Assembly: GCA_965209015.1 (NCBI GenBank)
Contig: OZ242367.1
Span: forward strand, 447,160-511,159
Reading direction: 5' to 3'
DNA: 64,000 nt
Source: Rhodothermales bacterium
Lineage (GTDB): Bacteria; Bacteroidota; Rhodothermia; Rhodothermales; Bin80
Below are positions 22,471 through 40,324 of the stretch, in pieces (position 1 is the stretch's first letter; every line of letters starts with the position of its first letter). The notes below the pieces were generated by a model, which worked only from the letters and a program-made list of their open reading frames with translations, was not told the origin of the DNA and did not search any database. Both the position numbers and the translations under genes were made by a program.

Positions 22471-25400
22471 TTACTTCACGAGGGTCATCCGTCCTTTGGC
22501 AAGTTGGATACCTGCATCCAGATTGGCAACGACACGATAAATATAGAGACCTGATGGCAGGTTGGGAACCGCAAGCATCAACGATCTTGACGGACCCGCG
22601 GAGACACCAACGAATTCTTCCATATGAACTCTTTGCCCCAGCAGATTGAATACTTCCACCGACAGATCTGCCGCCGTTGGTAAGTCCACCAAGATATTCG
22701 TTGATGGATTGAACGGATTCGGATAATTCCCTATCAGTGCAAATTCTGTAACTGCATGACCAGTCTCAGCAGACGTTGTCCCTATCACTTCAATCGTAAA
22801 GTTGGTACTGACGGCTGTTCCAGCATTGTCAGTGGCAGTAAATGTATAGGTCATTGAAGCGGAGGGCTCCTGAGGCGTACCTGAGATGTATGGACCCGAA
22901 GGAATGAATACCAATCCAGAGGGCAACTCAGGGGTCAGGGTATACATGTATGGGGACTGCCCTCCCGAGGCTTTGGGCAGATTCAGCTGCTCAATCGGTT
23001 GGGACACGGTGTAGGTCTGATCTTGTATGTTGCCCGTCAGCGTGAATGCGTCTGTACAATTTGCGCCCATCACCTCGGAGACGGTATGTAGCCAATTCTG
23101 GAACTCATCATAGACTGGCGCACAGAGTGGCTGCCCATCAAAATGGAGAATGCCAAGACTCTCCAAGTTCGTCATCTCTCCTGGGAGTGTACCGTCCAGA
23201 TTGTTCTCATCTATTCTCAACTCAATGAGGCCTGTTAAATCTCCCACAGTTTCCGGTAGAATACCAAGCATCCCGACTCCGCTAAGATTCAGTTCCGTTA
23301 CACGTCCACGATAGACTTCTACCCCATTCCAAGCATCCAACTCTTGAATCTGTGGCAGTTCTGAATCTGTAATTGACCAGTTTTCCTGTGCAGCCCACTG
23401 AGGCCCTTCCGTCTCTTCGTAAATATTTTTCAGTGCTTGCCAATCTTTCTCCAACTCTGCGGACGGAGAGGTGGTAGCTGAAAGGGTTGCATAGGGCCCT
23501 GTACCGATCTCATTCGTTGCAGCAACCTGCACTTCATAAGACGTTCCGGGGAGGAGTTCACTCAGAGTCGCTTCACCTGCGGGGTAGCGCCTTTCCACCC
23601 ATTCGCTTGGCTGAAAGCCTTCCAGTTCCCGCTCCTCATCGGATTCCCTATAGCGCACTTCGTATCGCAGGATCTCCATACCCCCATCCCGTTCGGGGGA
23701 CTGCCAACTTAATTCAAGCTCGGAATCGGAAGCAGGTTGAATCAAGAAGTCTAATGGAGACGATGGGATGGTTACATCCTGCGTAGAAGCTGCCCCAGCA
23801 TAGACTGTTTCTGTATCATCAACTAAATGAAGGAGTTCAACATCATAAACAACTCCGGGAGAGAGGTCATAAATTCGTGCATTCCTTGCATTACCGAGGT
23901 TGGGAACCTGTTCCCACTGAGAAGCGGACTGCTCCCGATAGTACAATTCATACACATCCGTGGATGCAGAGGCGGCACCCTGTGAGGTTTTTCCCGCGCT
24001 AGGAGTTACTTCAACCCAGAACACATCCAGTTCGGTTGTACTTTGTCCACAGACCGTCAACGTTAGCGAGGCACCTGTTTGGGCCGATGCTTGCGTGGCG
24101 GCGAATCCATTCGTATACGCTCCTGTGCCCGCACGATTCACCGCGGCAATCTGAACTTGGTACAGTGCGGATGCACTCAGTCCACTAATGGTCTCTTGCA
24201 GACCAGTTTCCTCACGGGGCCATGTGGTCCAATCATTCGTACCAGTTTTATAGCCTATCTCGTAGCTTGTGATTGGAGCGCCTCCATTGTCAAAAGGTGC
24301 ATCCCATGATAGACGGAGTGCGTTGTCCGAAGTACCACATACAACCAGATTTTCTGGATTCCCCGGAAGATTGGCTTGGGTTGTTGCGGACTCCTGAACA
24401 AATTCGCCATGCTCAGCGTCAATCAATCCGGCAACCCGAACCTGATAGGTGGTTCCAGCCATAAGATCCGTGATGATCGCCTCAGTGGATAGCCCTGTAT
24501 GAGCAATCTGTTGCCATGTCCCTGAACTCTCATCTCCACGATACTCCACTCGATAGCCGATCACGTCAGGACCCGAGGTGGGAGCAGTCCATGTAGCCTG
24601 AACACTGGAGGTAGACAGGACGGTCAGCATTAAGGAAGAGGGAGCGTCAGGTAACCCCGTTTCATCCATGGTTTGTCCAGTGCTCTGAATAAATAACCCC
24701 ATAAAGTCTGCATTGATCGCTGCAACCCGAACGTCATAACTTGTTCCTGGATTAAGGTTTTGAATAAGAATAGTCGTACTCTCCGAACTCTCTTCTTCCC
24801 AGTCTCCAGGTTGTCTTCCTGTTTGGGTTTCATCCTCGTCGGAGACGCGGTAGTCAATCTGGTACCGAAGGATTGGTATCCCTCCCGCGTCAACTGGAAC
24901 TGTCCAGGATACTTCCAGATCTGTCGTAGAGGTGCCCGTAACAATCAGAGCACGCGGAGGAGAGGGAGCGGTAGCAGACTCGGTCGTCACTGTACCCGAT
25001 TCAAATTCACCTGCCCCCAAAGCATTCACCGCGGCAATGCGCACCTGATACTCCGTTCCTGCCATGAGATTAGTCAGGATCACTTCCTTAGTTTCCGCAC
25101 GGCGAGTAAGAGTCATCGGATCCGAATCCGCAGGCGCATTGGTTGGGGCATATTCAATCGTATATGACCGCAAAGCCAGCCCACCTGTTTCCGTTGGTTT
25201 TGTCCAAGTGACGCGAACTTCAGTCGGGGATAGAGAGGCGATGACCACATCCAACGGAGTGCCAGGAGTAGAAGTCTCCGCAACGGTGGTCGCCGTATCA
25301 ATCTCCGTATACTCCCCCTGTCCGGCAGAATTCTCCGCCGCCACGCGCACATCATAAGACATGTTGGATAGCAGGTCGGTAATTTCTAGTGTGGTTTCAG

Positions 25401-28400
25401 TGGTTGAGAGTTCCTTCCAGTTCCCAGCGGGCTCCGCACCCTCTCCATCAGGATCGGACGTCCGATACGCTAGAATATAGGACAGTGAACCCCCTGAATT
25501 ATTTTGATCTGGTGCTGACCAAGTAACCAAAATTCTTGATGGCGAAGTTGCACGCACCGATAGATCAAGGGGCGGGTTCGGAATGGCAATACTCGTGGTT
25601 GCCGATGCAACGGCGTAGGGACCGATCCCCGCTGAATTGATGGCCGCCACTTGGACATCATAGGACGTTCCACCAGTGAGCCCTTCAATGGAAGCACGGG
25701 TCTCAATCCCAGTTTGTTCTACGGCGATCCATGGACCTGCTTCTTCGCTGTCCGTCGCCGAAGTCCGATATTGAATACTGTACCCTGTAATCTCAGACCC
25801 ACTTGTTTCAGTGGGAGGTGACCAGGTCACCGACAGTTCATTCGGGGAAATGACGGTGATTGCAAGATCCAATGGTACAGAGGTAACGCCGATATTCAGC
25901 GTCGTGAACGTCTGCGATGCAAAAGGACCTGCTCCCACAGAGTTAACTGCTGCAACTTGTACATTGTAGACTGTTTCCGCGACTAACCCAGATAGAGTGG
26001 CACTACTCGTCTCGTGGTCACTGAATTCCCAATCTCCTGGCGCAGTACCCTGTCCTGAACCATCGGCATCTGCTAATCGATAGCCAACCCGGTAGCCTGT
26101 CACGGTGGCCCCGCCGTTCTCATCGGAAGAGAGTTCTGTCCAAGTCAACTCTGCCCCGGTATGAGAAATAGATGAAATCTCAAATCCATCGGGTGGGCTC
26201 GTTGGCACCGTGGCCGGATTCGTGACACCGACCGTATTGGAGGAGTACTCTCCATCTCCAATACGGTTGTTCGCGGCAATCTGGACATCATACGATGTAC
26301 CGGCACTCAATTGCGTGAGCGTACGTTGTAGACTCGCTGCACTCTCAATCTCAATCACGGGTTCCCAATCCCCAGGCTGCACCCCCGGTGTAGTGACGTC
26401 GCTATCCGTCAAACGATAACGAAGTTTGTACAGCAGGATCGGCTGGCCGCCAGTAATCTCGGGGGCTTCCCAAGAAACGGTCAGTTCCGTAGGCGAAGGG
26501 GAGGTAATCTGAAGGCTCGTTGGGATCCCCGGTGCAGAAGATGAGGTCGTCACCTCTTCTGATACAAATTCACCGGTGCCAGCGACGTTGATCGCTGCAA
26601 CCCGTACATTGTAAGAGGTGCCAGGCAAGAGATCCGTAATGGTGGCCGTTGTACCCGAAGGGGTGGCATCGGACCAGGCAGAAGTCGCGGGAGCACTCGC
26701 GAGCCGGTACTGAACCGAATAAGCTGAGATCTCGCTTCCACCGATCTGTGCTGGAACATCCCAAGAAATTGATAAGCTGGTGGGGCCCGTAACCTGAATC
26801 TCTACGTTCTGGGGCGCGGAGGGCGCATTCGCGTCCGTGGTCGTCGCAACCAACGTTCCCTCATCACCCGTGCCTGCACTGTTGACCGCTGACACGCCAA
26901 TGACGTAGGACGTACCAGCCAGTAAACCCGTAAGTGAGACGGTCTGCCCTGCGGGAGAGGCGGAAGTCCAATTTTGGGAGCTCTCCAACCGATACCGGAC
27001 TACATACCCCGTAACGGGAGCACCTCCATCGGAAGAGGGTGCAATCCACGCAACCGTTAACGCATTTTGCCCCTGAGCAGTCACATTAAGATTTTGAGGA
27101 GCAGTGGGCGCAATCGCTGCATTCGTACTTTGCGTGGTTCGGGCGTACGGCCCTGCCCCAGCGCTGTTATTCGCTGCAACCTCTAATTCGTACTCGGTAC
27201 CTCCAGATAGATCACTGATTGAGGTAGAGGTTGCTCCGATGACCGAAATAACTGACGACCATTGCGCGGTGCCACTCTGACGATAACGAATATTATAACT
27301 CTGGATTGCAGCTCCGCCATCATCCTCAGGTGCTTGCCAACTGATGCTGATCTCCGTCGGAGATGTAGCACTGGCCGTGAGTGACCGAGGAACGGTAGGC
27401 TCAACCGCCGGGCCAGTCGTCCCTGTAAGCGTGGCAGCTACTCCCTCCCCCTTTTCATTGGTGGCCTGGATGCTGATATCGTAGGTGGTCGCAGGTAACA
27501 GTGAACGAAGGACAACGGTTGTCCCCGTCACCTGTTGCGTCTCATAGGTGCTGGATGTGGTTAGTTTATGACCAACCGTGTATCCCGTAATCGTACCACC
27601 GCCATCACTTTGAGGAGCACTCCATTCCAGAGTGAGGGAAGAGTGCGTCGGGGCAGAGACGGTTGCACCTGTGGGAGCAGAAGCAAGGACAATCGGATTG
27701 GTGGCTACTTCGGAAGAGGTAGCAGGATCCCCTGTACCCGCAAGATTCGTTGCCGTAACCTGAACCTCGTAGATGGTCTCCACTTCCAAGCCCGTAATTG
27801 TGTGGATGAACACAGGACCGACAGCGTTCGGCGTGCTCCATGCCGCAGGTGGGATTTCCACTTTGCGATGACTCACTTCATATCCAGTAATGAGCCGACC
27901 GCCATTTTCTGAGGGAGCTTCCCATGATACATCCAGTTCGGTTTGAGAGACCGCAGAGACCTGCAAATTCTGGGGAACACTTGGGAGTGCCGCATCGGTA
28001 CGCCCAGAACCCATTGCAGGATCGCTGGCACCGACACCATTTACAGCAGCTACTCGGATATCATACAATACATATGGATCCAGGTTGGAGAGTGTGATTG
28101 TCTCCACGTTTCCAGAGTGGGAGGCATCAATCCAATTCCCCGCAGTTTGGCCGGCATCTGCCGCACGCCGATACTCTACGGTATAACCTGAAAGATTTGA
28201 ACCGTTCGTCTCCGCCGGGGCAATCCATGTGACCGTCAAAGAAGAGGAGGTCGTAGCTGTAACCGTAACTTCCGTAGGTGAATCGGGAGCTGCCTGAGGG
28301 GTTCCTATTCCCTTAGCATAATCGCCTTCCCCAATGGCATTTCTGGCACGAACCTGTATATCATATGAGGTCCCTGCGACCAATGATGTGATCGTGAAGG

Positions 28401-30726
28401 TGTTTACTGAGCGGGAAACACGCATGTCTGTCCACCCTTCAGATCCCGAATCTGAAACGCGATGGCGTAGATCAAACCCTAAAATTTCCGCTCCGTTGTC
28501 AGTGGGAGTTTCCCATCTAGCAGTGAGAGATGTCGCGGAGGCAACAGTAACAAATATGGTAGGCCTTCCAGGAGCCGTGGCAGGAGTGCCAGCTCTCTCA
28601 TCCGAGTAGGTTCCTGTTCCCACCGAGTTGATCGCTGCGACCTGAATAAAGTACCCTGTTCCTGTCGTAAGTTCAGTGATCGTAGTCTCCGTGCCCGTGA
28701 CAGTCGATGTCACAGAAGTCCAATCGCTGGGGTTTGCATTCTCGTCACGGTACTGAACCGAATAGCCAGTGATCTCAGCTCCACCGTTTTCCGTGGGAGC
28801 AACCCATGAGACGTCCAGAGAGGTCCCAGAGGCCACCGCTACCGTCACGCCAGTAGGTGCCCCAGGGCGTACTACTAAGGTAATGGATTCCTCCTCCGAG
28901 TAGGTGCCGGTCCCGACCGAGTTGATTGCCGCAACCTGAACAAAGTACTCTGTTCCTGTCGTAAGTTCAGTGATCGTAGTCTCCGTGCCCGTGGGATTCG
29001 GCGTTACGGAAGTCCAAGTGCTAGGGTTTTCATTTCCCCCGCGGTACTGGACGCTATAGCCTGTAATATCAGTCCCACCGTTTTCCGCGGGAGCATTCCA
29101 TAATACGTTCAGGGATGTTCCCGAGGCTATCTCAACAGTTACCCCAGAGGGTGCTCCGGGGGCAGTAATGGTTGGTCCTGCGGGGGTAGTTCCATTGCCG
29201 GTCAACCAGTCTCCAGTGCCAATTTCATTGACCGCAGCAACCCTGACATCATACTGAGATTCGGGTTGCAAGCCTGTAATCGTGGCACTGGTGCCCGTAC
29301 CCGTCGTAGGGAATGTGGTATATTCTGTCTCGGAGTCCAACTTGTATTCAACCGTATATCCCGTGATATCCGTTCCTCCCGTTTCCACGGGAGCAACCCA
29401 AGTGAGGGCAAGTTGGCTAGGCTCGGTTTCATCTACCGCAAGATTCGTAGGAACACCGGGCGCCGTTGCAGGAAGGGTTTTTAGACGATCATCATCGCTA
29501 TTAGTTCTAACCCGACTACTGCCAACATCATTGAACGCAGAAAGCTCAACACGATAGTTCGATTCTGCGCGGAGATTTGTGAAGGTATAACTAAGTTCCG
29601 AAGAAGGGTCTATCTCTATCGCTGGTAGAAATGAAGCTCTTGGCGGGTGCCTTGTTATGGCTACTCCATATTTGGTGATTGGGCTCCCACCATCATCATC
29701 TGGGGGGCTCCATGTTACGGTAATTTGGGAGGGTGTTTTAGAGAATCTAACATTAGCAGGTTGGTTAGGAGCCATTATAGGAATAAGAGGTGTCCACTCG
29801 GAGTCCACCTCATTATCATGCCCATCATCGTCCTTATAAAACACTCTGGCCTTGATTCTCTTACCTCGGTCAATATCCCTTATTCTGTATTGAGGTGCAG
29901 AACCCAATGCATAACGAGTTATTTGTTCACCAGTAACATCATCCCGAAAAGTACGCAATTCCTGATTCCCGTTTTCATCCTCTGCAATCCACGAAACATT
30001 AGGAGAAAATCCCTGATCTGGTGTCTCGCTACGAGCCATAGTCATTCCATCGGGATCTTGAACGCCAATATCTCCACTGGTGAGAAAAATGACATCAAAG
30101 ACTTGGCGCTGAAGTTCTACCGCAGAGTTCACTACCCTTAGTTCTAACATGCCAGTAGGGAGATCATTCACAGGATTTACATTGAACGTAAACTGGAACA
30201 CGCTGCTTTCATCACCACGGATAACTGTTTTGAAGCTAAAGCTACTATAATCGTCCCCGTTGTCATTTTGATCAGGCGTAAATATCAAGTTTCCTGCATC
30301 CAAATCGTCCTTTGAAATCGTCTGCCCATCAGATACATCGACACCATTGAGCTTCAATGTTCCCGGCCCTGAGAATTCAGTAATTATCACAGAAAAGTCG
30401 GTTTCGTTTGTAAAGTCACTTGCCTCAATCGGGTAAGGCGTATCCTCCTGTATATCCTTCTCCACGTTAGAAGCATTCGGAGAATCTGATTTGTCATCCT
30501 CCGGTGACTTCGTAACGCTCTCATCGGGTCTAAGTCCAAACTCAACAGGGAAAGATGGAGGCGTTAAAAGAGAAGCGTCACTTACCCCCTCTGATACCGG
30601 CAATACAAGCCCGGATTCATTTGGTCCGCCTACATTATCGGCATAGGATTTCGGCGGAAAAACTGTACATATTTTAATTAAGGCGAGAAAAATAATTGGG
30701 ACGAATCTAGATTTTGAATAAAGCAT
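22471..30726 (-). CDS. Giant cell-surface adhesin: cadherin-like N-domain, about 21 FN3 repeats, LRR module, putative Ig domain, T9SS C-terminal sorting domain
   Basis: FN3 signature 'L.V.W.AP...GG..ITGY.V.YR' was counted about 21 times. LRR module 'NWS...WNGVEVYRGRVTELNLSGVGMLGILPETVGDLTGLIELRI'. Ig-like 'GGQSPYMYTLTPELPSGLVF'. T9SS tail 'LIGNYPNPFNPSTNILVDLP...GLYIYRVVA'. The likely start is M at 30726 ('MLYSKSRFVPIIFLALI'); the track start is 30765. Confidence 0.9.
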   Translation of the reverse strand: MLYSKSRFVPIIFLALIKICTVFPPKSYADNVGGPNESGLVLPVSEGVSDASLLTPPSFPVEFGLRPDESVTKSPEDDKSDSPNASNVEKDIQEDTPYPIEASDFTNETDFSVIITEFSGPGTLKLNGVDVSDGQTISKDDLDAGNLIFTPDQNDNGDDYSSFSFKTVIRGDESSVFQFTFNVNPVNDLPTGMLELRVVNSAVELQRQVFDVIFLTSGDIGVQDPDGMTMARSETPDQGFSPNVSWIAEDENGNQELRTFRDDVTGEQITRYALGSAPQYRIRDIDRGKRIKARVFYKDDDGHDNEVDSEWTPLIPIMAPNQPANVRFSKTPSQITVTWSPPDDDGGSPITKYGVAITRHPPRASFLPAIEIDPSSELSYTFTNLRAESNYRVELSAFNDVGSSRVRTNSDDDRLKTLPATAPGVPTNLAVDETEPSQLALTWVAPVETGGTDITGYTVEYKLDSETEYTTFPTTGTGTSATITGLQPESQYDVRVAAVNEIGTGDWLTGNGTTPAGPTITAPGAPSGVTVEIASGTSLNVLWNAPAENGGTDITGYSVQYRGGNENPSTWTSVTPNPTGTETTITELTTGTEYFVQVAAINSVGTGTYSEEESITLVVRPGAPTGVTVAVASGTSLDVSWVAPTENGGAEITGYSVQYRDENANPSDWTSVTSTVTGTETTITELTTGTGYFIQVAAINSVGTGTYSDERAGTPATAPGRPTIFVTVASATSLTARWETPTDNGAEILGFDLRHRVSDSGSEGWTDMRVSRSVNTFTITSLVAGTSYDIQVRARNAIGEGDYAKGIGTPQAAPDSPTEVTVTATTSSSLTVTWIAPAETNGSNLSGYTVEYRRAADAGQTAGNWIDASHSGNVETITLSNLDPYVLYDIRVAAVNGVGASDPAMGSGRTDAALPSVPQNLQVSAVSQTELDVSWEAPSENGGRLITGYEVSHRKVEIPPAAWSTPNAVGPVFIHTITGLEVETIYEVQVTATNLAGTGDPATSSEVATNPIVLASAPTGATVSAPTHSSLTLEWSAPQSDGGGTITGYTVGHKLTTSSTYETQQVTGTTVVLRSLLPATTYDISIQATNEKGEGVAATLTGTTGPAVEPTVPRSLTASATSPTEISISWQAPEDDGGAAIQSYNIRYRQSGTAQWSSVISVIGATSTSISDLSGGTEYELEVAANNSAGAGPYARTTQSTNAAIAPTAPQNLNVTAQGQNALTVAWIAPSSDGGAPVTGYVVRYRLESSQNWTSASPAGQTVSLTGLLAGTSYVIGVSAVNSAGTGDEGTLVATTTDANAPSAPQNVEIQVTGPTSLSISWDVPAQIGGSEISAYSVQYRLASAPATSAWSDATPSGTTATITDLLPGTSYNVRVAAINVAGTGEFVSEEVTTSSSAPGIPTSLQITSPSPTELTVSWEAPEITGGQPILLYKLRYRLTDSDVTTPGVQPGDWEPVIEIESAASLQRTLTQLSAGTSYDVQIAANNRIGDGEYSSNTVGVTNPATVPTSPPDGFEISSISHTGAELTWTELSSDENGGATVTGYRVGYRLADADGSGQGTAPGDWEFSDHETSSATLSGLVAETVYNVQVAAVNSVGAGPFASQTFTTLNIGVTSVPLDLAITVISPNELSVTWSPPTETSGSEITGYSIQYRTSATDSEEAGPWIAVEQTGIETRASIEGLTGGTSYDVQVAAINSAGIGPYAVASATTSIAIPNPPLDLSVRATSPSRILVTWSAPDQNNSGGSLSYILAYRTSDPDGEGAEPAGNWKELSTTETTLEITDLLSNMSYDVRVAAENSAGQGEYTEIDTATTVAETSTPGTPLDVVIASLSPTEVRVTWTKPTETGGLALRSYTIEYAPTNAPADSDPMTLTRRAETKEVILTNLMAGTEYQVRIAAVNALGAGEFESGTVTTESATAPSPPRALIVTGTSTTDLEVSWTVPVDAGGIPILRYQIDYRVSDEDETQTGRQPGDWEEESSESTTILIQNLNPGTSYDVRVAAINADFMGLFIQSTGQTMDETGLPDAPSSLMLTVLSTSSVQATWTAPTSGPDVIGYRVEYRGDESSGTWQQIAHTGLSTEAIITDLMAGTTYQVRVAGLIDAEHGEFVQESATTQANLPGNPENLVVCGTSDNALRLSWDAPFDNGGAPITSYEIGYKTGTNDWTTWPREETGLQETISGLSASALYQVQIAAVNRAGTGAYTNGFAATQASAQTGASLTLTVCGQSTTELDVFWVEVTPSAGKTSQGAASASTDVYELYYREQSASQWEQVPNLGNARNARIYDLSPGVVYDVELLHLVDDTETVYAGAASTQDVTIPSSPLDFLIQPASDSELELSWQSPERDGGMEILRYEVRYRESDEERELEGFQPSEWVERRYPAGEATLSELLPGTSYEVQVAATNEIGTGPYATLSATTSPSAELEKDWQALKNIYEETEGPQWAAQENWSITDSELPQIQELDAWNGVEVYRGRVTELNLSGVGMLGILPETVGDLTGLIELRIDENNLDGTLPGEMTNLESLGILHFDGQPLCAPVYDEFQNWLHTVSEVMGANCTDAFTLTGNIQDQTYTVSQPIEQLNLPKASGGQSPYMYTLTPELPSGLVFIPSGPYISGTPQEPSASMTYTFTATDNAGTAVSTNFTIEVIGTTSAETGHAVTEFALIGNYPNPFNPSTNILVDLPTAADLSVEVFNLLGQRVHMEEFVGVSAGPSRSLMLAVPNLPSGLYIYRVVANLDAGIQLAKGRMTLVK

Positions 30727-31124
30727 TTGATTTGGAGTAATTAACATAACTAATGGGCATGACACCTGTACTTACTTGATCTACGAAGACCTACGAAAAT
30801 GTTGCAGAGATCCGATCAATAAATATGTTCACGGATATATATTTGGGGGTAATAACTTACTGTACAATGGAGGGGAAGCCAGACATAGGCGAGCGAAAGT
30901 ACGGAAAACCCTGCCTTTAGTCAATAACTTGAAAGCGTTTTCAAGATCTTCACATAAAATTCACGCAAGTTTCACACTTTTAATTCCATTTCTTTCGTGC
31001 ACCGTGGAAAGGTACCCCTCTGTGATGGGTGCGAATCCCATCCAATAACTGTCGCTCCCCGGTTGGTAGCGGCCTTGGCGTATTATGGAGGTAACGATAT
31101 GGTATGAAGCACTAGGACTTAAAG

Positions 31125-31585: not shown

Positions 31586-31834
31586 TTAATGTTCAATATC
31601 TTTGGGAGGATTAGGGTCCTGCCCCGGCGGAATCGTATCTTTACTTCTGATTTTTCCATCACGTCCCTTTGTAGTAAGTTCGCCACCACCCTGATTTCTA
31701 AGATTCTCCTTAGCGGCATCTTGTGCATCTCTTTGAGTGTCATGTAGACTTGTGGGCCTCTCTCTATCGTTTCGCTTATTCACCCACTTGCCGTTTTCAT
31801 TTATATACACGGTGCGATCTTGTGGTTTTGCCAT
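31586..31834 (-). CDS. DUF2188-like small protein
   Basis: 'VYINENGKWVNKRNDRERPTSLHDTQRDAQDAAKENLRNQGGGELTTKGRDGKIRSKDT' matches the DUF2188 pattern. Confidence 0.55.
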   Translation of the reverse strand: MAKPQDRTVYINENGKWVNKRNDRERPTSLHDTQRDAQDAAKENLRNQGGGELTTKGRDGKIRSKDTIPPGQDPNPPKDIEH

Positions 31835-32354: not shown

Positions 32355-33506
32355 TTAAGAAGTTTGACGATTAAACCACGAACTTTCAAGTTCTTTGACC
32401 TGTTTCTCTATCAATGCACGGTGGTCTGATTCATTCATGCTCATGAACTGATCCTTCTCCACAAGGGTAATTTCTTCCTGATCTGAATGTCCCAAGCGTA
32501 GGATCTGGAGAGCCTCGTGTTCAGGTAGCAACCCTTTGATGAACGCTCTGTGTATCAAAAGGTCTAACCTTTGTGGGATTTCTGGGGCAAGTTGTTGAGG
32601 CTCTTTTTTCCTCCATCCCATTTTACCGATCATTATACACCACTTCTTGTACAGGTAGTGGTTAATCACTTCTAACTCACGTAACCGATATAAGAGTGCC
32701 TGTATACTCATCCCATATCTTCGTTTAAGCAGAAACAATTCCTGACTAGAGATAAATGTTCTGCGACGACCAATATCACGAAATAACGTCTGAGAAGGAG
32801 CCAAAAAAGCTCCCCCAAACCGATATGCCACTTTCTCTTTATCACGATAATCATCAGATTCAACACTCAAAACGAGATGCCCTAACTCATGTGCTAAGTT
32901 AAGTCGTTGTCGGTCACCAGAAAGCCCCCGTCTTGATACAACTCCCGAAGAGACAGGAACGCTCTGGCTATTGAGTGCTCGGAGTGAAAGACCATCAAAC
33001 CCCTCTGTTGCATCAATTTCAATCACATGAATTTGTTTGTTCTCTAATAAGTTAACCATACTTGGAATAGGATCTGTACCCAATCTCCAATGATTACGAA
33101 GTTCAAAAGCGGCACCCTCTGCCTCCTCAACATTGCTGATGCATTGAGGCTCTGGTAACGTCTCAGTCCTATTGAATTCTCCCAGCATATCCAATAGACG
33201 TATTCTCTCTTCAAGAGCAAACTGACATAGGCTTTCTATTCGGTTTTGTTCATGCTTACGCAATCTTGAGCCTTTGCGGTATTCAACAATTTCAATCTCA
33301 ACGGTGGCTCTGCGAGAGAGAGACTCAATACTGACATTCAGTGCCTCGGCAAGCTTTTCTATAACTTGTTTTGAAGGTAACGATGCACCCCGCTCATATT
33401 TCGAGAGCGATTGCTTTGTTACAAACCCATCCATAGATTGGGCAAGATCGTCCAGAGACATGCCCTTCGCAAGGCGAAATTGTTTCAATCTTTCACTGGT
33501 AAGCAT
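32355..33506 (-). CDS. Fused XRE-family HTH / ImmA-IrrE (COG2856) zinc metallopeptidase regulator (CapH-CapP-like)
   Basis: N-terminal HTH 'ERLKQFRLAKGMSLDDLAQSMDGFVTKQSLSKYERG'. HExxH in 'LAHELGHLVL'. The start was trimmed to the ATG at 33506; the track's TTG is at 33539. Divergent from the CD-NTase operon. Confidence 0.85.
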   Translation of the reverse strand: MLTSERLKQFRLAKGMSLDDLAQSMDGFVTKQSLSKYERGASLPSKQVIEKLAEALNVSIESLSRRATVEIEIVEYRKGSRLRKHEQNRIESLCQFALEERIRLLDMLGEFNRTETLPEPQCISNVEEAEGAAFELRNHWRLGTDPIPSMVNLLENKQIHVIEIDATEGFDGLSLRALNSQSVPVSSGVVSRRGLSGDRQRLNLAHELGHLVLSVESDDYRDKEKVAYRFGGAFLAPSQTLFRDIGRRRTFISSQELFLLKRRYGMSIQALLYRLRELEVINHYLYKKWCIMIGKMGWRKKEPQQLAPEIPQRLDLLIHRAFIKGLLPEHEALQILRLGHSDQEEITLVEKDQFMSMNESDHRALIEKQVKELESSWFNRQTS

Positions 33507-33539
33507 AAAATGTGGACTACTTGTGAAAATAGTTGACAA

Positions 33540-33558
33540 TTCAACAAAATTTGTTGAA
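33540..33558. promoter_or_regulatory. Perfect 9-1-9 palindrome (candidate operator) in the divergent promoter region
   Basis: TTCAACAAA-A-TTTGTTGAA at 33540-33558. It abuts TTGACA (33534-33539) and overlaps TTGAAA (33554-33559). TACAAT lies at 33579-33584. Confidence 0.5.
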
Positions 33559-33611
33559 ACTTGTAAACCGAAAGCGTGTACAATACAAGTTTAATTAAAA
33601 CCCCCGAAATA

Positions 33612-34766
33612 ATGAATACATCCCACAGCCAACAAGATGAACGTAACAGGTCTCTTGACCAATTACTCCGATCAATTTGTACCCAGAATCAAATCACAAA
33701 ATCGCAACATGATCTTGCCGTGGAGCGGTACCAAAAAATCAGCAAATTTCTGTCAGGAAGTGGCTGCCCTTTGGCAAAATACAGCCCTGAGATTTACTCT
33801 CAGGGCTCATTCAGGATTGGTACAACCAATAGGCCCACAGGACAGGATGAATTTGATATAGATTTTGTATGCGAGTTTGCAAGTCGGTCCGCCAGTACAG
33901 GAGGCCCCGATCAATTACTTCAAGAATTGTACGATACCATTCAAAAGCACAGGGGTTATAGTCAACTTGTTGAAATGAAAAAACGTTGCGTACGACTAAA
34001 TTACGCTGGAGACTTCCACATGGATATCTTGCCAGCTATCCCTAACCCCATGAAAGGTCAAAGTTGTGTTAAGGTTCCCGATCGTAAGCTACACCACTGG
34101 ATAGATAGCAATCCAAAGGGATATGCTGAGTGGTTTGAGCAAATTGCTAATGGTAGACAAGGATGGGATAGAAAATCTACGCAGCCTATTCAAGATTACG
34201 AGTCCGCCCAACAAAAAGTAACTCTCAGAGTGGTGGTTCAGCTTATGAAACTTTGCCGTGATGTAGTTTTTGCTGGAAGAGATTATAACAAAGATTTTGC
34301 CCCTCCAAGTATTATTCTTACTGCGCTTGCAGCGAACCTGTATCGTGATGAGGATTCCGTGAATCAAGCAATTAGTTCAATCCTCAATCAGATTGTACAT
34401 GATATCAAAGATCCCGGAGGTGAGATGTTGATAGTGGTTAATCCGACGAACCCTGACGAAAAATTCAGTGAGAAGTGGGAGCAAAACTCCACATCATATC
34501 AGCAATTCATTAGGTGGATTCGGTACTTTGAAACAGTATGGAAACAGTTGCAGAGCCAGCAAGGATTATCCCAAATCAAACAAGAGCTTGAAAAACTTTT
34601 CGGTGAGGATATTACCAAAAGTGTATTCTTTGAACTGGAGGATCAACTAGTTCAGTCTCGGCGAAGGGGTGAGTTAGGAGTATTACCGATTGCGGGGGTA
34701 GTCAACATGCCGGAAGAACCAAGTGCGATTCAGGTCAAACCTAACACTTTCTACGGGCATCAATAG
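33612..34766 (+). CDS. CD-NTase / SMODS-family nucleotidyltransferase (CBASS cyclase-like)
   Basis: Pol-beta NTase motifs 'QGSFRIGTTNRP', 'DEFDIDFV' and a third acidic site 'FHMDILPA', followed by 'SNPKGYAEWF'. The start could be 33576 or 33612. Confidence 0.8.
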   Translation: MNTSHSQQDERNRSLDQLLRSICTQNQITKSQHDLAVERYQKISKFLSGSGCPLAKYSPEIYSQGSFRIGTTNRPTGQDEFDIDFVCEFASRSASTGGPDQLLQELYDTIQKHRGYSQLVEMKKRCVRLNYAGDFHMDILPAIPNPMKGQSCVKVPDRKLHHWIDSNPKGYAEWFEQIANGRQGWDRKSTQPIQDYESAQQKVTLRVVVQLMKLCRDVVFAGRDYNKDFAPPSIILTALAANLYRDEDSVNQAISSILNQIVHDIKDPGGEMLIVVNPTNPDEKFSEKWEQNSTSYQQFIRWIRYFETVWKQLQSQQGLSQIKQELEKLFGEDITKSVFFELEDQLVQSRRRGELGVLPIAGVVNMPEEPSAIQVKPNTFYGHQ

Positions 34767-34787
34767 ATACTATGCTATGGGATAGAA

Positions 34788-35201
34788 ATGACACTTCCTC
34801 AACAAGATGCGAATATACACATGTATTATTCCCAGTTTCAAACAACTTGGAATAAGGGTACCATAATCTGGAATGGCCCGATTCGGCCCTGTTCGCTAAG
34901 TGATATCTATGATATCCGAATCAAATACCGGTTGAGAAGTGCACCCCAAGTAAATGTCCTATCTCCGATACTGAAAAAAAAGGCCAATGACAAACCTATT
35001 CCCCATATTTACAGTGATGGATCTTTGTGTCTCTACCTGCCAAGAACTAATGGGTGGGCTCCCCATATGTCCATAGCAAAAACAATTATCCCATGGACAT
35101 ACATGTGGCTTTACTTCTATGAGTTCTGGCAGGCCACGGGTAGATGGATAGGGGGAGGTGAACATCCAAGCTTCAGATCAGAAAGAAGAAGGAAACCATG
35201 A
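34788..35201 (+). CDS. Minimal UBC-fold E2-like protein (Cap2-short-like)
   Basis: The layout parallels eukaryotic E2 cores. 'IIWNGPIRP...YDIRIKY....PQVNVLSP' corresponds to 'W.A.I.GP...Y...F.L.I.FP...PP.V.F'. 'PHIYSDGSLCLYL' corresponds to 'HPNI...G.ICLDIL' (Cys81). 'GWAPHMSIAKTI' corresponds to 'WSPALTI..VL'. Confidence 0.65.
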   Translation: MTLPQQDANIHMYYSQFQTTWNKGTIIWNGPIRPCSLSDIYDIRIKYRLRSAPQVNVLSPILKKKANDKPIPHIYSDGSLCLYLPRTNGWAPHMSIAKTIIPWTYMWLYFYEFWQATGRWIGGGEHPSFRSERRRKP

Positions 35202-36136
35202 CCAGGCGTATTCTTAGTATAGATGGAGGTGGAGTCAAAGGTGCTTTTCCAGCTTCTTTTCTGGCTAAAGTAGAAGAAAGTATCGGTTGCCATGTAGCTG
35301 ACTATTTTGACTTGATTACGGGAGTGAGCACTGGTGGTATTCTGGCGCTTGGTCTCGGTCTACGGATCGAGGCTGAGAAGTTGATTAGTTTTTATGAGAA
35401 CAGAGGGGCAGAGATATTTCCTGAAAATCAATCTTTCCATCACATTCGTTCTTTATTTTCTGCCAGATACAGGCAAGAGCCCTTAAAAGCAGCACTTCAC
35501 GAAGTATTTGGAAACCACAAATTAGGCCAAAGTAAGAGTCGGTTGGTGATTCCATCAACTAATCTTGAAACAGGCGATGTCTATATATTCAAGACATCAC
35601 ATCATCCACGCCTACAAAGTGACTTCAAAAGATCAATGGTTGAGGTAGCCTTGGCTACGAGCGCTGCTCCGGTCTATTTTCCATTCTATTCAAAGAAACG
35701 TGAAGTTCAACTAATAGACGGTGGGGTATGGGCCAGTAATCCTATTGCAGTGGCGGCGATAGAAGCTCTAACGATTTTAGAATGGAAAGAATCAATAGAA
35801 ATTCTCAGTCTGAGTTGCACTGGTAAGCCACTCAACATAAATCCAGATGGGCGAAAAGGGATGGGAGTTTTCCAGTGGTGTCGGTATAGTACTAACCTCT
35901 TCATGACCTCACAATCAAAGTCAGCTCTCGGGATGGCTCAACTTTTAGTGGGCAATAATAATGTAATGAGAATTGACACCACATTCAACCAAGGGAGGTT
36001 TAAGCTTGATAGAAGTAAGGATATAAACTCGCTCGTGGGGATAGGATCATCCGAAGCGCGAAAAGCGCTGCCAGAACTCAAGGAGCGCTTTTTCCAACAG
36101 ATCACAGAAAAGTTCATCCCAGTGAATAAACTGTAA
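35198..36136 (+). CDS. Patatin-like phospholipase (CapV-like effector)
   Basis: Oxyanion 'DGGGVKG', nucleophile elbow 'GVSTGG' (GxSxG) and catalytic 'IDGGVWASNP'. The start overlaps the E2-like stop as ATGA. Confidence 0.9.
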   Translation: MTRRILSIDGGGVKGAFPASFLAKVEESIGCHVADYFDLITGVSTGGILALGLGLRIEAEKLISFYENRGAEIFPENQSFHHIRSLFSARYRQEPLKAALHEVFGNHKLGQSKSRLVIPSTNLETGDVYIFKTSHHPRLQSDFKRSMVEVALATSAAPVYFPFYSKKREVQLIDGGVWASNPIAVAAIEALTILEWKESIEILSLSCTGKPLNINPDGRKGMGVFQWCRYSTNLFMTSQSKSALGMAQLLVGNNNVMRIDTTFNQGRFKLDRSKDINSLVGIGSSEARKALPELKERFFQQITEKFIPVNKL

Positions 36137-36306: not shown

Positions 36307-37194
36307 ATGGACTATTATGTCTTCTCTGATGAGAGCAGCCACACCGACGGAGAATTCAGGAGTATTGCTGCTATCTCGCTCCCATACATTTCCCGAGAGC
36401 AGATAACGGCTCTTTCCGACAGTCTGGCCCAAAGTATAGAGTTTTCAGAGAAAGGAGAACTAAAGTGGAGAAATATTGGAAGGAATGGTACAGCGAATGT
36501 TTGCAGAGCAAAGGCAGCAGTTGACTTTGTTCTTTCAAACCGTCAACAGGGGCTACGAATAGATGTGTTAACATGGGATATCAACGACTCACGTCACTCC
36601 GTTGAACACAGAGACGATATTGCAAATTATGCTCGAATGTATTTCCATTTACACCGTAATCTAATTAAACGACGTGGCGATAATACTCGCTGGCATTTAC
36701 GACCAGACAGGCAAGTTAGAATTGATTGGGATACTATTCAGAGGTGCTTCAGTAGTACCGGTACATGGCAACACAATACTCAAGAAATTCCTGAGCTATT
36801 AACTGAGGAAGCCCGTGAGGTCGCTCCATATGTGGACACTTTCAAGGAGGTAGACTCGGCTGAAACGCCGTTTATACAGTTGGCTGACATATTTGCGGGT
36901 ATGGCCAGTTACAGCCGTAAAAACACACAGATTATTCGGCAACTGCTGAATAAAAACAGTATACAAATAAAAATATTCCCCCCAGATGTGCCTGCTTATC
37001 AGGTATCCAGAAAGGATCATGGTCGCTTTCAAGTCATCTATCATCTGTATCGGTGCTGCAAAAAACAGAGACTTGGAGTATATCTGGAAAGTAAGGCATA
37101 CTTATTGACAAAGGCTCCAAGGAACCCTATAAACTTTTGGCATTACGAATCACAGCATCCTAGGGATAAGGCTCCCACGAAGAACAAGTTATGA
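36307..37194 (+). CDS. DUF3800-domain protein
   Basis: N-terminal 'YYVFSDESSH' (DESG-like) and C-terminal 'IQLADIFAGMASY', which are the two hallmark DUF3800 motifs. Confidence 0.65.
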   Translation: MDYYVFSDESSHTDGEFRSIAAISLPYISREQITALSDSLAQSIEFSEKGELKWRNIGRNGTANVCRAKAAVDFVLSNRQQGLRIDVLTWDINDSRHSVEHRDDIANYARMYFHLHRNLIKRRGDNTRWHLRPDRQVRIDWDTIQRCFSSTGTWQHNTQEIPELLTEEAREVAPYVDTFKEVDSAETPFIQLADIFAGMASYSRKNTQIIRQLLNKNSIQIKIFPPDVPAYQVSRKDHGRFQVIYHLYRCCKKQRLGVYLESKAYLLTKAPRNPINFWHYESQHPRDKAPTKNKL

Positions 37195-37450: not shown

Positions 37451-37810
37451 ATGACCCAGCAATCAAATATCCGTATAAGTTCCCCAGAACTCGCCATTAC
37501 CGAGGGGAACCCGTTTAAATCTGATCAACTCAAGCGTAAGCCCTCATGTGAGTTGCTAACTGAGTTTGTATCTCGCATTGAAGGGCCTTGCACCATAGCA
37601 ATAGACGGCGCTTGGGGAAGTGGAAAGACTACGTTTCTAAATCTGTGGGCTGCTCATCTTAAGGATAACGCATTCTCCGTTATTCAAGTGAATGGCTGGA
37701 AAACGGACTACTTCAATGATCCCTTTCTTGCCATTGTCGGCGAAATGACGAAGCAACTGATGGACAAAGGGCAGTTTAAAACAAATGATCTCTCAGACCT
37801 CAAAAAATCT
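37451..37810 (+). pseudogene. KAP-family P-loop NTPase, 5' fragment truncated by ISL3 insertion
   Basis: Walker A in the KAP context 'CTIAIDGAWGSGKTTFLNLW'. The reading frame runs into the IS inverted repeat at 37811. No continuation is visible downstream of the IS. Confidence 0.7.
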
Positions 37811-39225
37811 GGCTCTTCGCACTTAAGAATGGGTTAATTGATTTCGGTAGCCTTCTGGATACATATCTAACCCTCCGAGATAGAAGTAAATCGCAGTGGC
37901 GAACCGCTGTTTATTTCGGTATCCCCGGGCACGGACCTTGATGCTTTTGATCCTACTATTGATACTTTCCGCTGGCCCATTGCTGACTTTGAGAACAATG
38001 GCATTGATGATCCCCCATAGATGTTTTTTGACGGTCTTCGCGGCCTCTTTCATGGGAGCAAGTCTACAGCGCATGGCCCAACTCAACCAGCGCGTCCAAC
38101 CTTTGCGTGCCCAAGTTCGGCTCTTATAGTGCCAGAGCCTCTGGGACAGGTCTTTGATTGCCCAAGCCCGAGCCGTTCTCAGCGAACTCTTCTTTAACGC
38201 TTGGAATCGTTTCTTTTGCTTGACCGACATATTCTGCGGATTGGTCAGCCATACATACTTGGTCCCTGTGAGATCCAGACTCCCTTCCTTCCGCAATTCT
38301 CGATTCTCCTGTTTCCGAACTTTATCTACTGCACCTCCTATATATCTGGCTACATGAAAGCGATCAAATGCAATCTTTGTTTCTGCGTCAGGAACCCATT
38401 TGAGTGTAGCGGAGATGAACGCGGGCCACATATCCATACTCAAGCTTTTGAGGGCTTTCAGTTGCGCAGGGGAACGGGAAGCATAATAGCTTTCCAGACT
38501 TTCTTTCTTCCGTTCATCCGCGACATGCAATACATGCCCCGTTTTCGGATTCCCCACTATCGTAACGTAGTTGTGCCCTTTTGTAAAGGCAATTTCATCC
38601 ACACAGATGTGTTCCGTCTTCTCTTTCTCTCTACGAGCAAGCCCTCGCTTGACCGCACGTTCCATGATATTGGAGATCATTCTCCAACTCACCTTCAGTC
38701 GAGTGGCCACCGTGGATAGACTGCCCGCATCCTCGGACCAGTCAATCACACGCGCCTCAAATCCGGTCGTAAACTGCACCCGCGCATCCGCCCATGGCAC
38801 CGATACCGTCTTGATCCCATGCTCCGAACACTGCACGCGAGGAACCCTCGCTACCACATGCGTGTGATAGTCACAGATTCGCGTATGACGCCACTTCCGA
38901 CGACGATGGTCGTAACCCGGACAGGCTTTCCCACACTCGGGACAACGTAACACCAAATCCTCTGAATAGATGACATGGATCTCCGCCGTCAACTCCTCGG
39001 AATCATAGGTGATCTCCGATACCTCCCACGAAGAGCCTATACCGAAGAGCTCACTAAGATCTTGAATTTGTATCGCCATGAATCGATAAATTGGTTGATT
39101 GGTTAATGAAAATGGATCGCGTATCTACCCATAAAATAAACATCAAAATCGACTCTGAACCCAATCCATCTCATGACCGTTCATCCTAATTCCAGGGCCT
39201 TGCCCACTTAAAAAGCTGTAGACCC
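37811..39225 (-). mobile_element. ISL3-family insertion sequence (copy 1, apparently intact)
   Basis: The ends are 'ggctcttcgcacttaagaatggg' (37811) and the reverse complement of 'gggtctacagctttttaagtggg' (ending at 39225). The latter matches the left IR of copy 2, 'gggtcttcaacaaatttagtg'. No matching 8-bp flanks: 'aaaaatct' versus 'ttatattt'. Confidence 0.75.
37823..39079 (-). CDS. ISL3-family transposase
   Basis: 418 aa. N-terminal zinc-finger 'CPECGKACPGYDHRRRKWRH', 'VDEIAFTKGHNYVTIV' and 'NGPAESINSRIKSIKVRARGYRN'. Confidence 0.9.
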   Translation of the reverse strand: MAIQIQDLSELFGIGSSWEVSEITYDSEELTAEIHVIYSEDLVLRCPECGKACPGYDHRRRKWRHTRICDYHTHVVARVPRVQCSEHGIKTVSVPWADARVQFTTGFEARVIDWSEDAGSLSTVATRLKVSWRMISNIMERAVKRGLARREKEKTEHICVDEIAFTKGHNYVTIVGNPKTGHVLHVADERKKESLESYYASRSPAQLKALKSLSMDMWPAFISATLKWVPDAETKIAFDRFHVARYIGGAVDKVRKQENRELRKEGSLDLTGTKYVWLTNPQNMSVKQKKRFQALKKSSLRTARAWAIKDLSQRLWHYKSRTWARKGWTRWLSWAMRCRLAPMKEAAKTVKKHLWGIINAIVLKVSNGPAESINSRIKSIKVRARGYRNKQRFATAIYFYLGGLDMYPEGYRNQLTHS

Positions 39226-39561: not shown

Positions 39562-40002
39562 ATGTCGTTTGTTCAGGAACGTTTCGTTGACAATGGTTTG
39601 GGACATTTTCTCACATCAAACGATTTTTGGGGGTTTGACGGAATGGAGACACTCTGTTCAGAACCAAACTATCGTGTCATAGACGAATTTATCACTAAGA
39701 TAAAAGAGGGAATTAGCTTTTTGGGTGAAATAAAAGTTCTTTCAGATGAAGATCGAAAAGCCATCAAGAGTCTGACTACAAATGTATTTAAGGCTGTTGA
39801 ATGGTTTGAAAAGTATTTGGCATTGATTAAAACTCTTCCCAGACATGTGTCCTGGAAACAAAAGGCATATGATAAACTGGAAAACCTTGTAATCCTTCTT
39901 GAGGACATGGGGGAAATTTGTGCATTATCTGCGAGTGAAGATTTTACTCGGATGATAAAGGCAGAAATAGAGAGTTTGACGGATGAGCCAACTGAGAATT
40001 GA
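39562..40002 (+). CDS. Hypothetical protein (146 aa)
   Basis: ORF overlapping the downstream toxin-like gene by 20 nt. No recognisable domain. Confidence 0.35.
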   Translation: MSFVQERFVDNGLGHFLTSNDFWGFDGMETLCSEPNYRVIDEFITKIKEGISFLGEIKVLSDEDRKAIKSLTTNVFKAVEWFEKYLALIKTLPRHVSWKQKAYDKLENLVILLEDMGEICALSASEDFTRMIKAEIESLTDEPTEN

Positions 40003-40324
40003 GAAGAGTCAAAAGTTCAAACGAGAACTTGATAGGCTGGGTAAGAGGCATTCAGGGTTAGTAGAAAAAGTTGACAACACTCTAAACAGTCTTGCTATTG
40101 GTGAAAGACCCGACGGAAAGCGACTTTTCGGATATAACGAACTTTTGATATTCCAGATTCGATGTGGTACGGGAAATATGGGACGAAGAGGTGGTGCGCG
40201 GATTATCTACTACAAGGATAAATCATGATTGTTAGCTTTATATATTTACCTCAAAAATGCTGAGGGTTACATTTCCAGTCAGAGGATCGTGAAAATCCTC
40301 AGAGACTATCTGCAAACCACATGA
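39983..40324 (+). pseudogene. RelE/ParE-superfamily toxin (GK.GG.R.IYY type) with in-frame TGA
   Basis: 'NMGRRGGARIIYYKDKS' is followed by TGA at 40226-40228. The same frame then continues 'LLALYIYLKNAEGYISSQRIVKILRDYLQTT*' to 40324, which is the expected C-terminal part of this toxin family. Confidence 0.6.

Follow-up and report, generated by a model that had tools for sequence, protein, structure and literature searches.

Can a ubiquitin-conjugating enzyme of the E2 class operate where no E1 activating enzyme is at hand, and if so, what would it conjugate? This question is raised by a small open reading frame (ORF) in a 64,000-nucleotide stretch of DNA from a Rhodothermales bacterium (contig OZ242367.1 of GenBank assembly GCA_965209015.1), hereafter the window, which covers 0.447-0.511 Mb of a complete, one-contig genome of 3.2 Mb. 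The ORF (window positions 34788-35201, plus strand) encodes a protein of 137 amino acids (aa) that an initial annotation, made by eye from the raw letters, had read as an E2; the same annotation saw neither an E1 nor a JAB partner nearby and suggested a covalent link between Cys81 of the E2 and Gly394 in the C-terminus of the adjacent cyclase. It appears very probable that we are dealing with an E2-only (type II short) operon of CBASS (a system for antiphage signaling based on cyclic oligonucleotides), acting through abortive infection and consisting of a CdnG-like cyclase, the E2, and a CapV-type patatin phospholipase. The locus belongs, then, to a known, mechanistically characterized system and is not a new one, and homology makes the Cys81-Gly394 pairing a well-founded prediction rather than a discovery.

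The three genes of the operon follow each other on the plus strand, the clade G-like CBASS cyclase of the cGAS/DncV-like nucleotidyltransferase (CD-NTase) superfamily first (33576-34766), the E2 second, and the patatin-like effector third (35198-36136). Only 21 nt separate the cyclase and E2 genes, and the start codon of the patatin gene overlaps the stop codon of the E2 gene (ATGA).

Sequence and fold of the E2 protein

All the motif blocks that had been picked out by eye are present in the protein, as W28-x-G30-x-I32-x-P34, Y41-x-I43-x-I45-x-Y47-(5)-P53-x-V55-x-V57, P72-H73-IYSDGSL-C81-L82, and W90-A-P92-xx-S95-I96, and the E2 blueprint that they were taken to spell out is upheld by profile and structure searches alike. 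The PADLOC profile of the CBASS E2 matches the protein with an E value of 1.5e-46, and its best sequence match in the PDB is SmE2, chain B of the CdnG-E2 complex of Serratia marcescens (8HSB; E 9.8e-21). The family is a large one: an exhaustive phmmer scan of the sequence library recovered 1580 representative clusters (clustered at 50% identity) at E<=1e-3, 887 of them at E<=1e-10. No Pfam match was obtained for the E2 with a Pfam set that lacked PF26395, the family that its homologues carry as a precomputed Pfam assignment, and no NCBIfam model matches it.

The AlphaFold2 (AF2) model of the protein, built with 118 homologues, is of high confidence (predicted local distance difference test, pLDDT, 93.4; predicted template modeling score, pTM, 0.87) and shows the core of the ubiquitin-conjugating (UBC) fold: helix α1 (residues 3-13), strands at 18-22, 25-32, 41-48, and 54-59, and helix α2 (100-117), with a long active-site loop between strand 4 and helix 100-117 that holds both His73 and Cys81, and with a floppy C-terminal tail. 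In a Foldseek search with this model, SmE2 (8hsb_B) came first, with a template modeling (TM) score of 0.79 and an E value of 4e-8; eukaryotic E2s came next, by the dozen (probability 0.9-1.0, TM 0.4-0.54). By sequence, the eukaryotic enzymes (UBE2W, Rad6, UbcH5) match only the His-Cys-Trp segment, at non-significant E values of 0.05-1. The resemblance to canonical E2s that the eye had caught is real, yet not significant by sequence alone, and it is the fold search with the predicted structure that confirms it.

What the protein shares with eukaryotic E2s (UBE2D2, UBE2W, Rad6) is the core made up of α1, the four-stranded sheet, the Cys-loop, and α2, along with the order P-H-x-Y-x-x-G-x-x-C-L...W-x-P, which mirrors HPN...G.ICL...WSP, the HVYSNGHICL segment of UBE2W aligning with it locally. 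The differences, however, are substantial. Helices α3 and α4 are absent, and unlike in the canonical UBC/UQ_con enzymes, there is no HPN motif with its oxyanion-hole Asn, the position of which is occupied by Tyr75 here and, in 98% of the window E2's family, by Tyr or Phe. By homology, moreover, the window E2 would do without E1 and would act as protease and ligase too, with the cyclase itself in the place of ubiquitin.

The conservation pattern singles out the same residues. In the alignment of 118 homologues (A1), His73 (codon 35004-35006) and Cys81 (35028-35030) are the sole invariant columns; in a wider alignment of 152 sequences, each is retained in 151, and His126 (35163-35165) in 119 (78%). 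The C-terminal tail, HPSFRSERRRKP, contains a single lysine, Lys136 (35193-35195), 10 residues after His126. Among the 118 homologues, 85 carry a lysine in the tail, its offset varying between them; that of SmE2, Lys159, lies 7 residues after His152.

The cyclase and its C-terminal glycine

The product of the first gene matches the Pfam families SMODS (6e-20) and DncV-like NTFase (1e-11), the PADLOC Cyclase profile (E 1.5e-96), and, in the PDB, SmCdnG, the cyclase of the Serratia complex (8hsb_A; E 5e-33, residues 24-394). Residue numbers given here follow the longest ORF, of 396 aa, except where the 384-aa form is named. The latter is likely to be the actual protein: the start is more likely ATG 33612 than GTG 33576, because GTG 33576 falls within the 105-bp divergent intergenic region, which would be expected to hold the promoters; the database gene call (P0011) also has 384 aa. 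With this start, Gly394 becomes Gly382. The nucleotidyltransferase site is intact, G65, S66, D82, D84, and D138 (384-aa numbering) being invariant among 97 homologues (alignment A2).

The protein ends, exactly as initially read, in KPNTFYGHQ, with Gly394 third from the end (codon 34755-34757, followed by His-Gln-stop). This predicted conjugation glycine is an invariant column in the 97 homologues, and in a survey of the C-termini of 120 cyclase homologues, 114 end in an aromatic residue and Gly followed by 1-6 further residues. The post-Gly tail comprises one residue in 57 of the surveyed proteins and two in 38, with Glu, Lys, or Asp most often in the first place. The full-length alignment to SmCdnG stops precisely at this position, which corresponds to Gly406 of the Serratia enzyme.

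Cyclases associated with E2 belong mostly to clade G, and their unique C-terminal helix and three-stranded sheet, variable in sequence except for the conserved Gly, recruit the E2 (PMC12948482). The AF2 model of the window cyclase (pLDDT 91.9) contains a corresponding module, in which a helix (332-351) is followed by strands at 356-358, 363-365, and 373-374 and by a low-confidence tail, so that, judging from this model, the protein carries an arrangement like the E2-recruiting one of SmCdnG, with a weak third strand. Foldseek ranked SmCdnG first (8yjy_A; TM 0.79/0.81, 388-391 columns aligned), ahead of BdCdnG (7LJN) and then of clade B and D enzymes. Helical matches to apolipoprotein-E-like structures, obtained when the last 88 aa were compared with the PDB by phmmer, were discarded as spurious.

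Comparison with the Serratia system

The characterized relative of this locus is the E2-CBASS of S. marcescens (Yan et al., Nat Microbiol 2024;9:1566, as cited in PMC12948482; preprint, 10.1101/2022.05.25.493364; Xiao et al., mLife 2026, PMC12948482), for which structures of the SmCdnG-SmE2 complex are available (PDB 8HSB, 8YJY, 9KKB). The covalent E2-cyclase linkage to which the initial annotation referred is indeed documented there, in the form of a thioester between Gly406 and Cys101. SmE2 alone, in plain buffer without cofactors, makes a link to the cyclase that is stable in sodium dodecyl sulfate; Gly406 of SmCdnG and Cys101 of SmE2 are needed for it, and so is His87 of SmE2, which is also needed to remove whatever follows the Gly, be it Glu407 or a fused maltose-binding protein (MBP) (10.1101/2022.05.25.493364). 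It is the E2 itself that cuts off the post-Gly part, up to an entire MBP or green fluorescent protein, and the resulting thioester can convert into an isopeptide to Lys159 of the SmE2 tail and back again, a step that requires His152 (10.1101/2022.05.25.493364). The 1:1 complex of cyclase and E2 is less active than the free cyclase, poly-cyclase chains, which also form, are more active, and protection against phage T4 is lost in the C101A, H87A, G406R, and H152A mutants and kept in K159A (10.1101/2022.05.25.493364).

The window locus resembles this system in gene order, a stand-alone E2 coming directly after the cyclase and both E1 and JAB being absent; in the architecture of the E2, which has a UBC core lacking helices α3 and α4 and a C-terminal GGGxHP loop; and in that of the cyclase, with its C-terminal helix and sheet module, aromatic-Gly, and short leaving tail. 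SmCdnG and SmE2 are the top matches of the window cyclase and E2, respectively, both in sequence and in fold, and the HMMER alignment equates His73, Cys81, and His126 with His87, Cys101, and His152 of SmE2. The two systems differ, however, in several respects. The identity is only ~27-32% in structural alignments; the effector is a patatin phospholipase in place of the Serratia 2TM-SAVED protein, and an exonuclease gene is lacking; the Gly has two residues after it (His-Gln), as opposed to one (Glu); from His to Cys there are 8 residues instead of 14, which shortens the active-site loop; Glu125 and Ile121 take the positions of Sm Lys151 and Glu147; and the tail lysine, Lys136, is found at another offset than Lys159. 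None of these differences appears to affect a defining feature of E2-CBASS.

The invariant residues also bear on the idea that the E2 catalyzes nothing and, as an adaptor or pseudo-enzyme, would only bind the cyclase tail non-covalently and hold the cyclase inactive. Extensive non-covalent interfaces do exist, and the low activity of the 1:1 Serratia complex fits such a role. Against this stands the fact that, across 118 diverse homologues, nothing except Cys81 and His73 is invariant, with Gly394 likewise invariant in the 97 cyclases: this is the pattern expected for chemistry and not for mere binding, and we consider the adaptor scenario very unlikely.

If the E2 is an enzyme, it could still be a conventional one that receives its charge from an E1 with a gene in another part of the genome, in the manner of Cap2 in E1E2/JAB-type CBASS, where the C-terminus of the cyclase is likewise conjugated. 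The genome does contain an E1 gene. The initial remark that no E1 or JAB is found nearby is correct in that ThiF is matched at no places other than 1.99 and 2.61 Mb, and Prok-JAB at none other than 2.61 Mb, 1.5-2.1 Mb from the window; the 2.61-Mb locus, however, includes a 465-aa JAB-ThiF (E1) fusion. This gene belongs to a separate ubiquitin-like operon (L022; G000:C1:2606248-2609658), 2.1 Mb away, in which it is accompanied by its own Prok-E2_E protein (8e-31) and by proteins of 150 aa and 97 aa without Pfam matches; there is no relationship between this operon and the CBASS E2 family, the profile of which matches the genome just once. An E1 acting in trans was rejected on these grounds, the sole JAB-E1 gene being part of the distant Prok-E2_E operon. 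Three further observations argue in the same direction: the post-Gly tail would call for a protease, and the only JAB of the genome resides in that remote operon; the window E2 has His73 and His126, counterparts of the catalytic His residues that Yan et al. reported as specific to E2-only systems (10.1101/2022.05.25.493364); and SmE2 is active in plain buffer without cofactors. Charging by an external E1 therefore seems extremely unlikely. The Cap2/Cap3 systems, with their E1E2 fusion and JAB peptidase, resemble the window operon in having an E2-fold domain and in the regulation of a CD-NTase via C-terminal conjugation; they differ from it by the E1 domain and the JAB peptidase, both absent here, whereas the window E2 has the His residues reported as specific to E2-only systems and its cyclase the additional C-terminal E2-docking module.

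The phospholipase effector and the integrity of the operon

The third gene fits the E2-only CBASS assignment. Its product matches the Pfam family Patatin (1e-24) and the PADLOC phospholipase effector profile (2e-98), and scores 265 bits against the NCBIfam model 'CBASS cGAMP-activated phospholipase', for which the cut-off is 200; GGGVKG, GVSTG, and DGG motifs are seen in the translation.

Given the surroundings, one could also imagine that the operon is a decaying, non-functional remnant in a defense island ridden with insertion sequences. An adjoining KAP NTPase gene has been cut by an ISL3 transposase, and the N-terminus of the E2 is ~10 residues shorter than that of most homologues. The missing residues, however, are the variable ones before helix α1, and all three genes of the operon are intact ORFs that retain every catalytic residue and yield confident models, so that decay appears to us quite unlikely.

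Distribution, neighborhoods, and fusions

Within the phylum, an E2 of this family is present in 15 of 401 sampled genomes, the genome analyzed here included; the genus itself is represented by four further genomes, one of which has it. Such a patchy spread is usual for mobile defense genes. The closest metagenomic relatives of the E2 (P0001-P0004) are 60-72% identical to it. The gene neighborhoods of 18 genomic loci with an E2 homologue were compared: at 12 of the 18, a separate cyclase that ends in aromatic-Gly (once Glu-Gly) and 1-6 further residues directly precedes the E2, at one the cyclase and E2 are fused, and a patatin gene follows the E2 or precedes the cyclase at 11.

The fusions deserve attention on their own account. 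In a 564-aa protein (P0146), the cyclase and E2 are joined, with NTFYG retained internally, and a cyclase-E2 fusion from the same genus (L030:6959-8437, minus strand) retains YYG; in both, the aromatic-Gly at the junction is followed by a linker of ~10-30 residues and then by the E2 domain. Another protein among the representatives (P0151, 493 aa) consists of an N-terminal E2 followed by a patatin with its own M-x-K-I-L-S-I-D-G-G-G start, and could be either a real fusion or a gene-call artifact of overlapping genes. In the window itself, the cyclase and E2 genes share a reading frame, a coincidence with a chance of one in three (33576 versus 34788, that is, 1212 = 404 x 3), with one TAG and seven codons between them (34764-34790). 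Because the frame is the same and a single TAG intervenes, and because fused relatives exist, a switch between the split and the fused state would need no more than one substitution.

Since the Serratia E2 cleaves off anything that follows the Gly of the aromatic-Gly motif, natural cyclase-E2 fusions might process themselves, a suggestion that we did not find stated in the papers on the Serratia system (Yan et al.; Xiao et al.). Taken to its conclusion, this could make the fusions, or any read-through product of the window operon, self-processing polyproteins from which the E2 would emerge already charged with the cyclase; the present lineage has no lysine at the offset of Lys159, and its resting state might then be another than the parked isopeptide conjugate of Serratia. 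We regard this as a long shot.

A divergent candidate regulator

Upstream of the operon and on the opposite strand, in agreement with the rule for CapH/CapP, lies a gene for a 394-aa protein (32355-33539, minus strand; likely start ATG 33506, Met12) in which an XRE-type helix-turn-helix (HTH) domain (Pfam HTH_3, 2e-14) is fused to an M78 (ImmA/IrrE) metallopeptidase (Peptidase_M78, 1e-11). Among PADLOC profiles, it matches RmrA (3e-48), capP (1e-9), and capH (1e-7), and it also matches the NCBIfam spr1629 repressor/antitoxin model, at 4e-29 and below the cut-off. Fusions of CapH and CapP have been reported in 15 CBASS systems by Lau et al. (10.1101/2022.04.27.489752), who also reported DUF2188 genes with HTH/metallopeptidase pairs in defense contexts (10.1101/2022.04.27.489752). 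An 82-aa DUF2188 protein (Pfam 3e-19) is encoded at 31586-31834, ~520 bp downstream of the regulator gene and on the same, minus strand. The window regulator thus shares with CapH/CapP and their fusions an XRE HTH, an ImmA/IrrE-type zinc peptidase, an upstream location on the opposite strand, and a DUF2188 gene nearby; it differs from them in its closer affinity to RmrA and in not being conserved beside related E2 operons.

The affinity to RmrA led us to consider a RosmerTA toxin-antitoxin pairing; no toxin-like partner in the same orientation was seen, the DUF2188 gene being the sole nearby same-strand ORF with a family match.

The 105-bp divergent intergenic region includes a perfect palindrome, TTCAACAAA-A-TTTGTTGAA (33540-33558), with two arms of nine nucleotides, 100% complementary, around a single central one. 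The window contains one exact copy of it, with 0.01 matches expected by chance at <=3 mismatches. The palindrome may serve as the operator of the HTH protein, which in turn may be viewed as a candidate repressor of the operon, similar to a CapH-CapP fusion.

Proposed mechanism and its weak points

From gene order, folds, homology, and residue conservation, we infer a scheme for the chemical steps, the signal, the acceptor lysine, and the regulation. By analogy with S. marcescens, the window E2 would work without E1 and without ATP: the His73/Cys81 dyad would attack the peptide bond after Gly394, releasing the His-Gln dipeptide and leaving a Gly394~Cys81 thioester. The cyclase would then be passed on to a lysine, one option being Lys136, the sole lysine of the floppy basic tail of the E2; transfer to this residue would yield a parked cyclase-E2 conjugate of low activity. 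Upon infection, the cyclase may go instead onto lysines of other cyclase molecules, building poly-cyclase chains of raised activity, and the resulting nucleotide signal, probably a cGAMP isomer, would activate the patatin phospholipase, with degradation of the membrane and death of the infected cell to follow. The divergent HTH-metallopeptidase protein probably represses the operon via the 9-1-9 palindrome, and the repression would be lifted after a stress signal.

Several observations weigh against the assignment to E2-only CBASS or against parts of this scheme. On the side of the cyclase, the AF2 model gives the C-terminal sheet a third strand of just two residues, and the last 88 aa have no SmCdnG match in the phmmer search of the PDB, so that it is the full-length alignment and the model that carry the likeness of the module; such a failure of sequence comparison is, however, to be expected, because the module is described as variable in sequence and as one that sequence alone does not reveal (PMC12948482). 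The cyclase also scores 85 bits against the NCBIfam cGAS model, the cut-off of which is 150, and for this reason no product is assigned to it. With regard to the E2, SmE2 Lys159 has no positional equivalent, the window protein having Arg there, and 33 of the 118 homologues are devoid of any tail lysine; moreover, Glu147 of SmE2, a salt-bridge partner, is replaced by Ile121, which implies that details of the interface differ. Finally, the regulator matches the profiles of the RosmerTA antitoxin RmrA far better than those of capH and capP, and no homologue of it is encoded beside the 18 related E2 loci, so that its pairing with the operon may be local.

What does the locus teach, given that it belongs to a known class? 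Reading of the raw sequence by eye was enough to recognize, correctly, a minimal ubiquitin-like conjugation system that does without E1. The biology that is added is little, hundreds of E2-only CBASS operons having been catalogued and the Cys-Gly chemistry having been solved for the homologue. The value is modest and lies in the divergence of this member, with ~30% identity to the Serratia proteins, in its coupling to a phospholipase effector, in the different tail and shorter active-site loop of its E2, and in its provenance from a sparsely populated lineage. As such, the window system could serve as a point of comparison for establishing which mechanistic features hold generally.

Neighboring genes

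Downstream of the patatin gene, at a distance of 170 nt, lies a gene for a DUF3800 protein (36307-37194, plus strand; Pfam 1e-7), which matches the PADLOC candidate PDC-M04A (8e-13) and is probably an independent gene of the defense island. The KAP P-loop NTPase gene that follows (window 37451-39079; PADLOC PDC-S20, 1.5e-34) ends after 128 aa at the gene for an ISL3-family transposase (37823-39079, minus strand; Pfam DDE_Tnp_ISL3, 3.5e-72), and no KAP-like ORF was seen in the window beyond this element. An ORF of 81 aa (39983-40228, plus strand), without a Pfam match at E<=0.01, ends in '...GRRGGARIIYYKDKS', resembling toxins of the RelE/ParE type, and may be truncated.

On the other side of the operon, the minus strand encodes a protein of 2764 aa (22471-30765) that, as seen from the ORF list only, comprises many FN3-like repeats, with an end resembling a sorting domain of type IX secretion. 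In the composition profile, its G+C content is 0.52-0.57, above the 0.42-0.43 of the defense genes.

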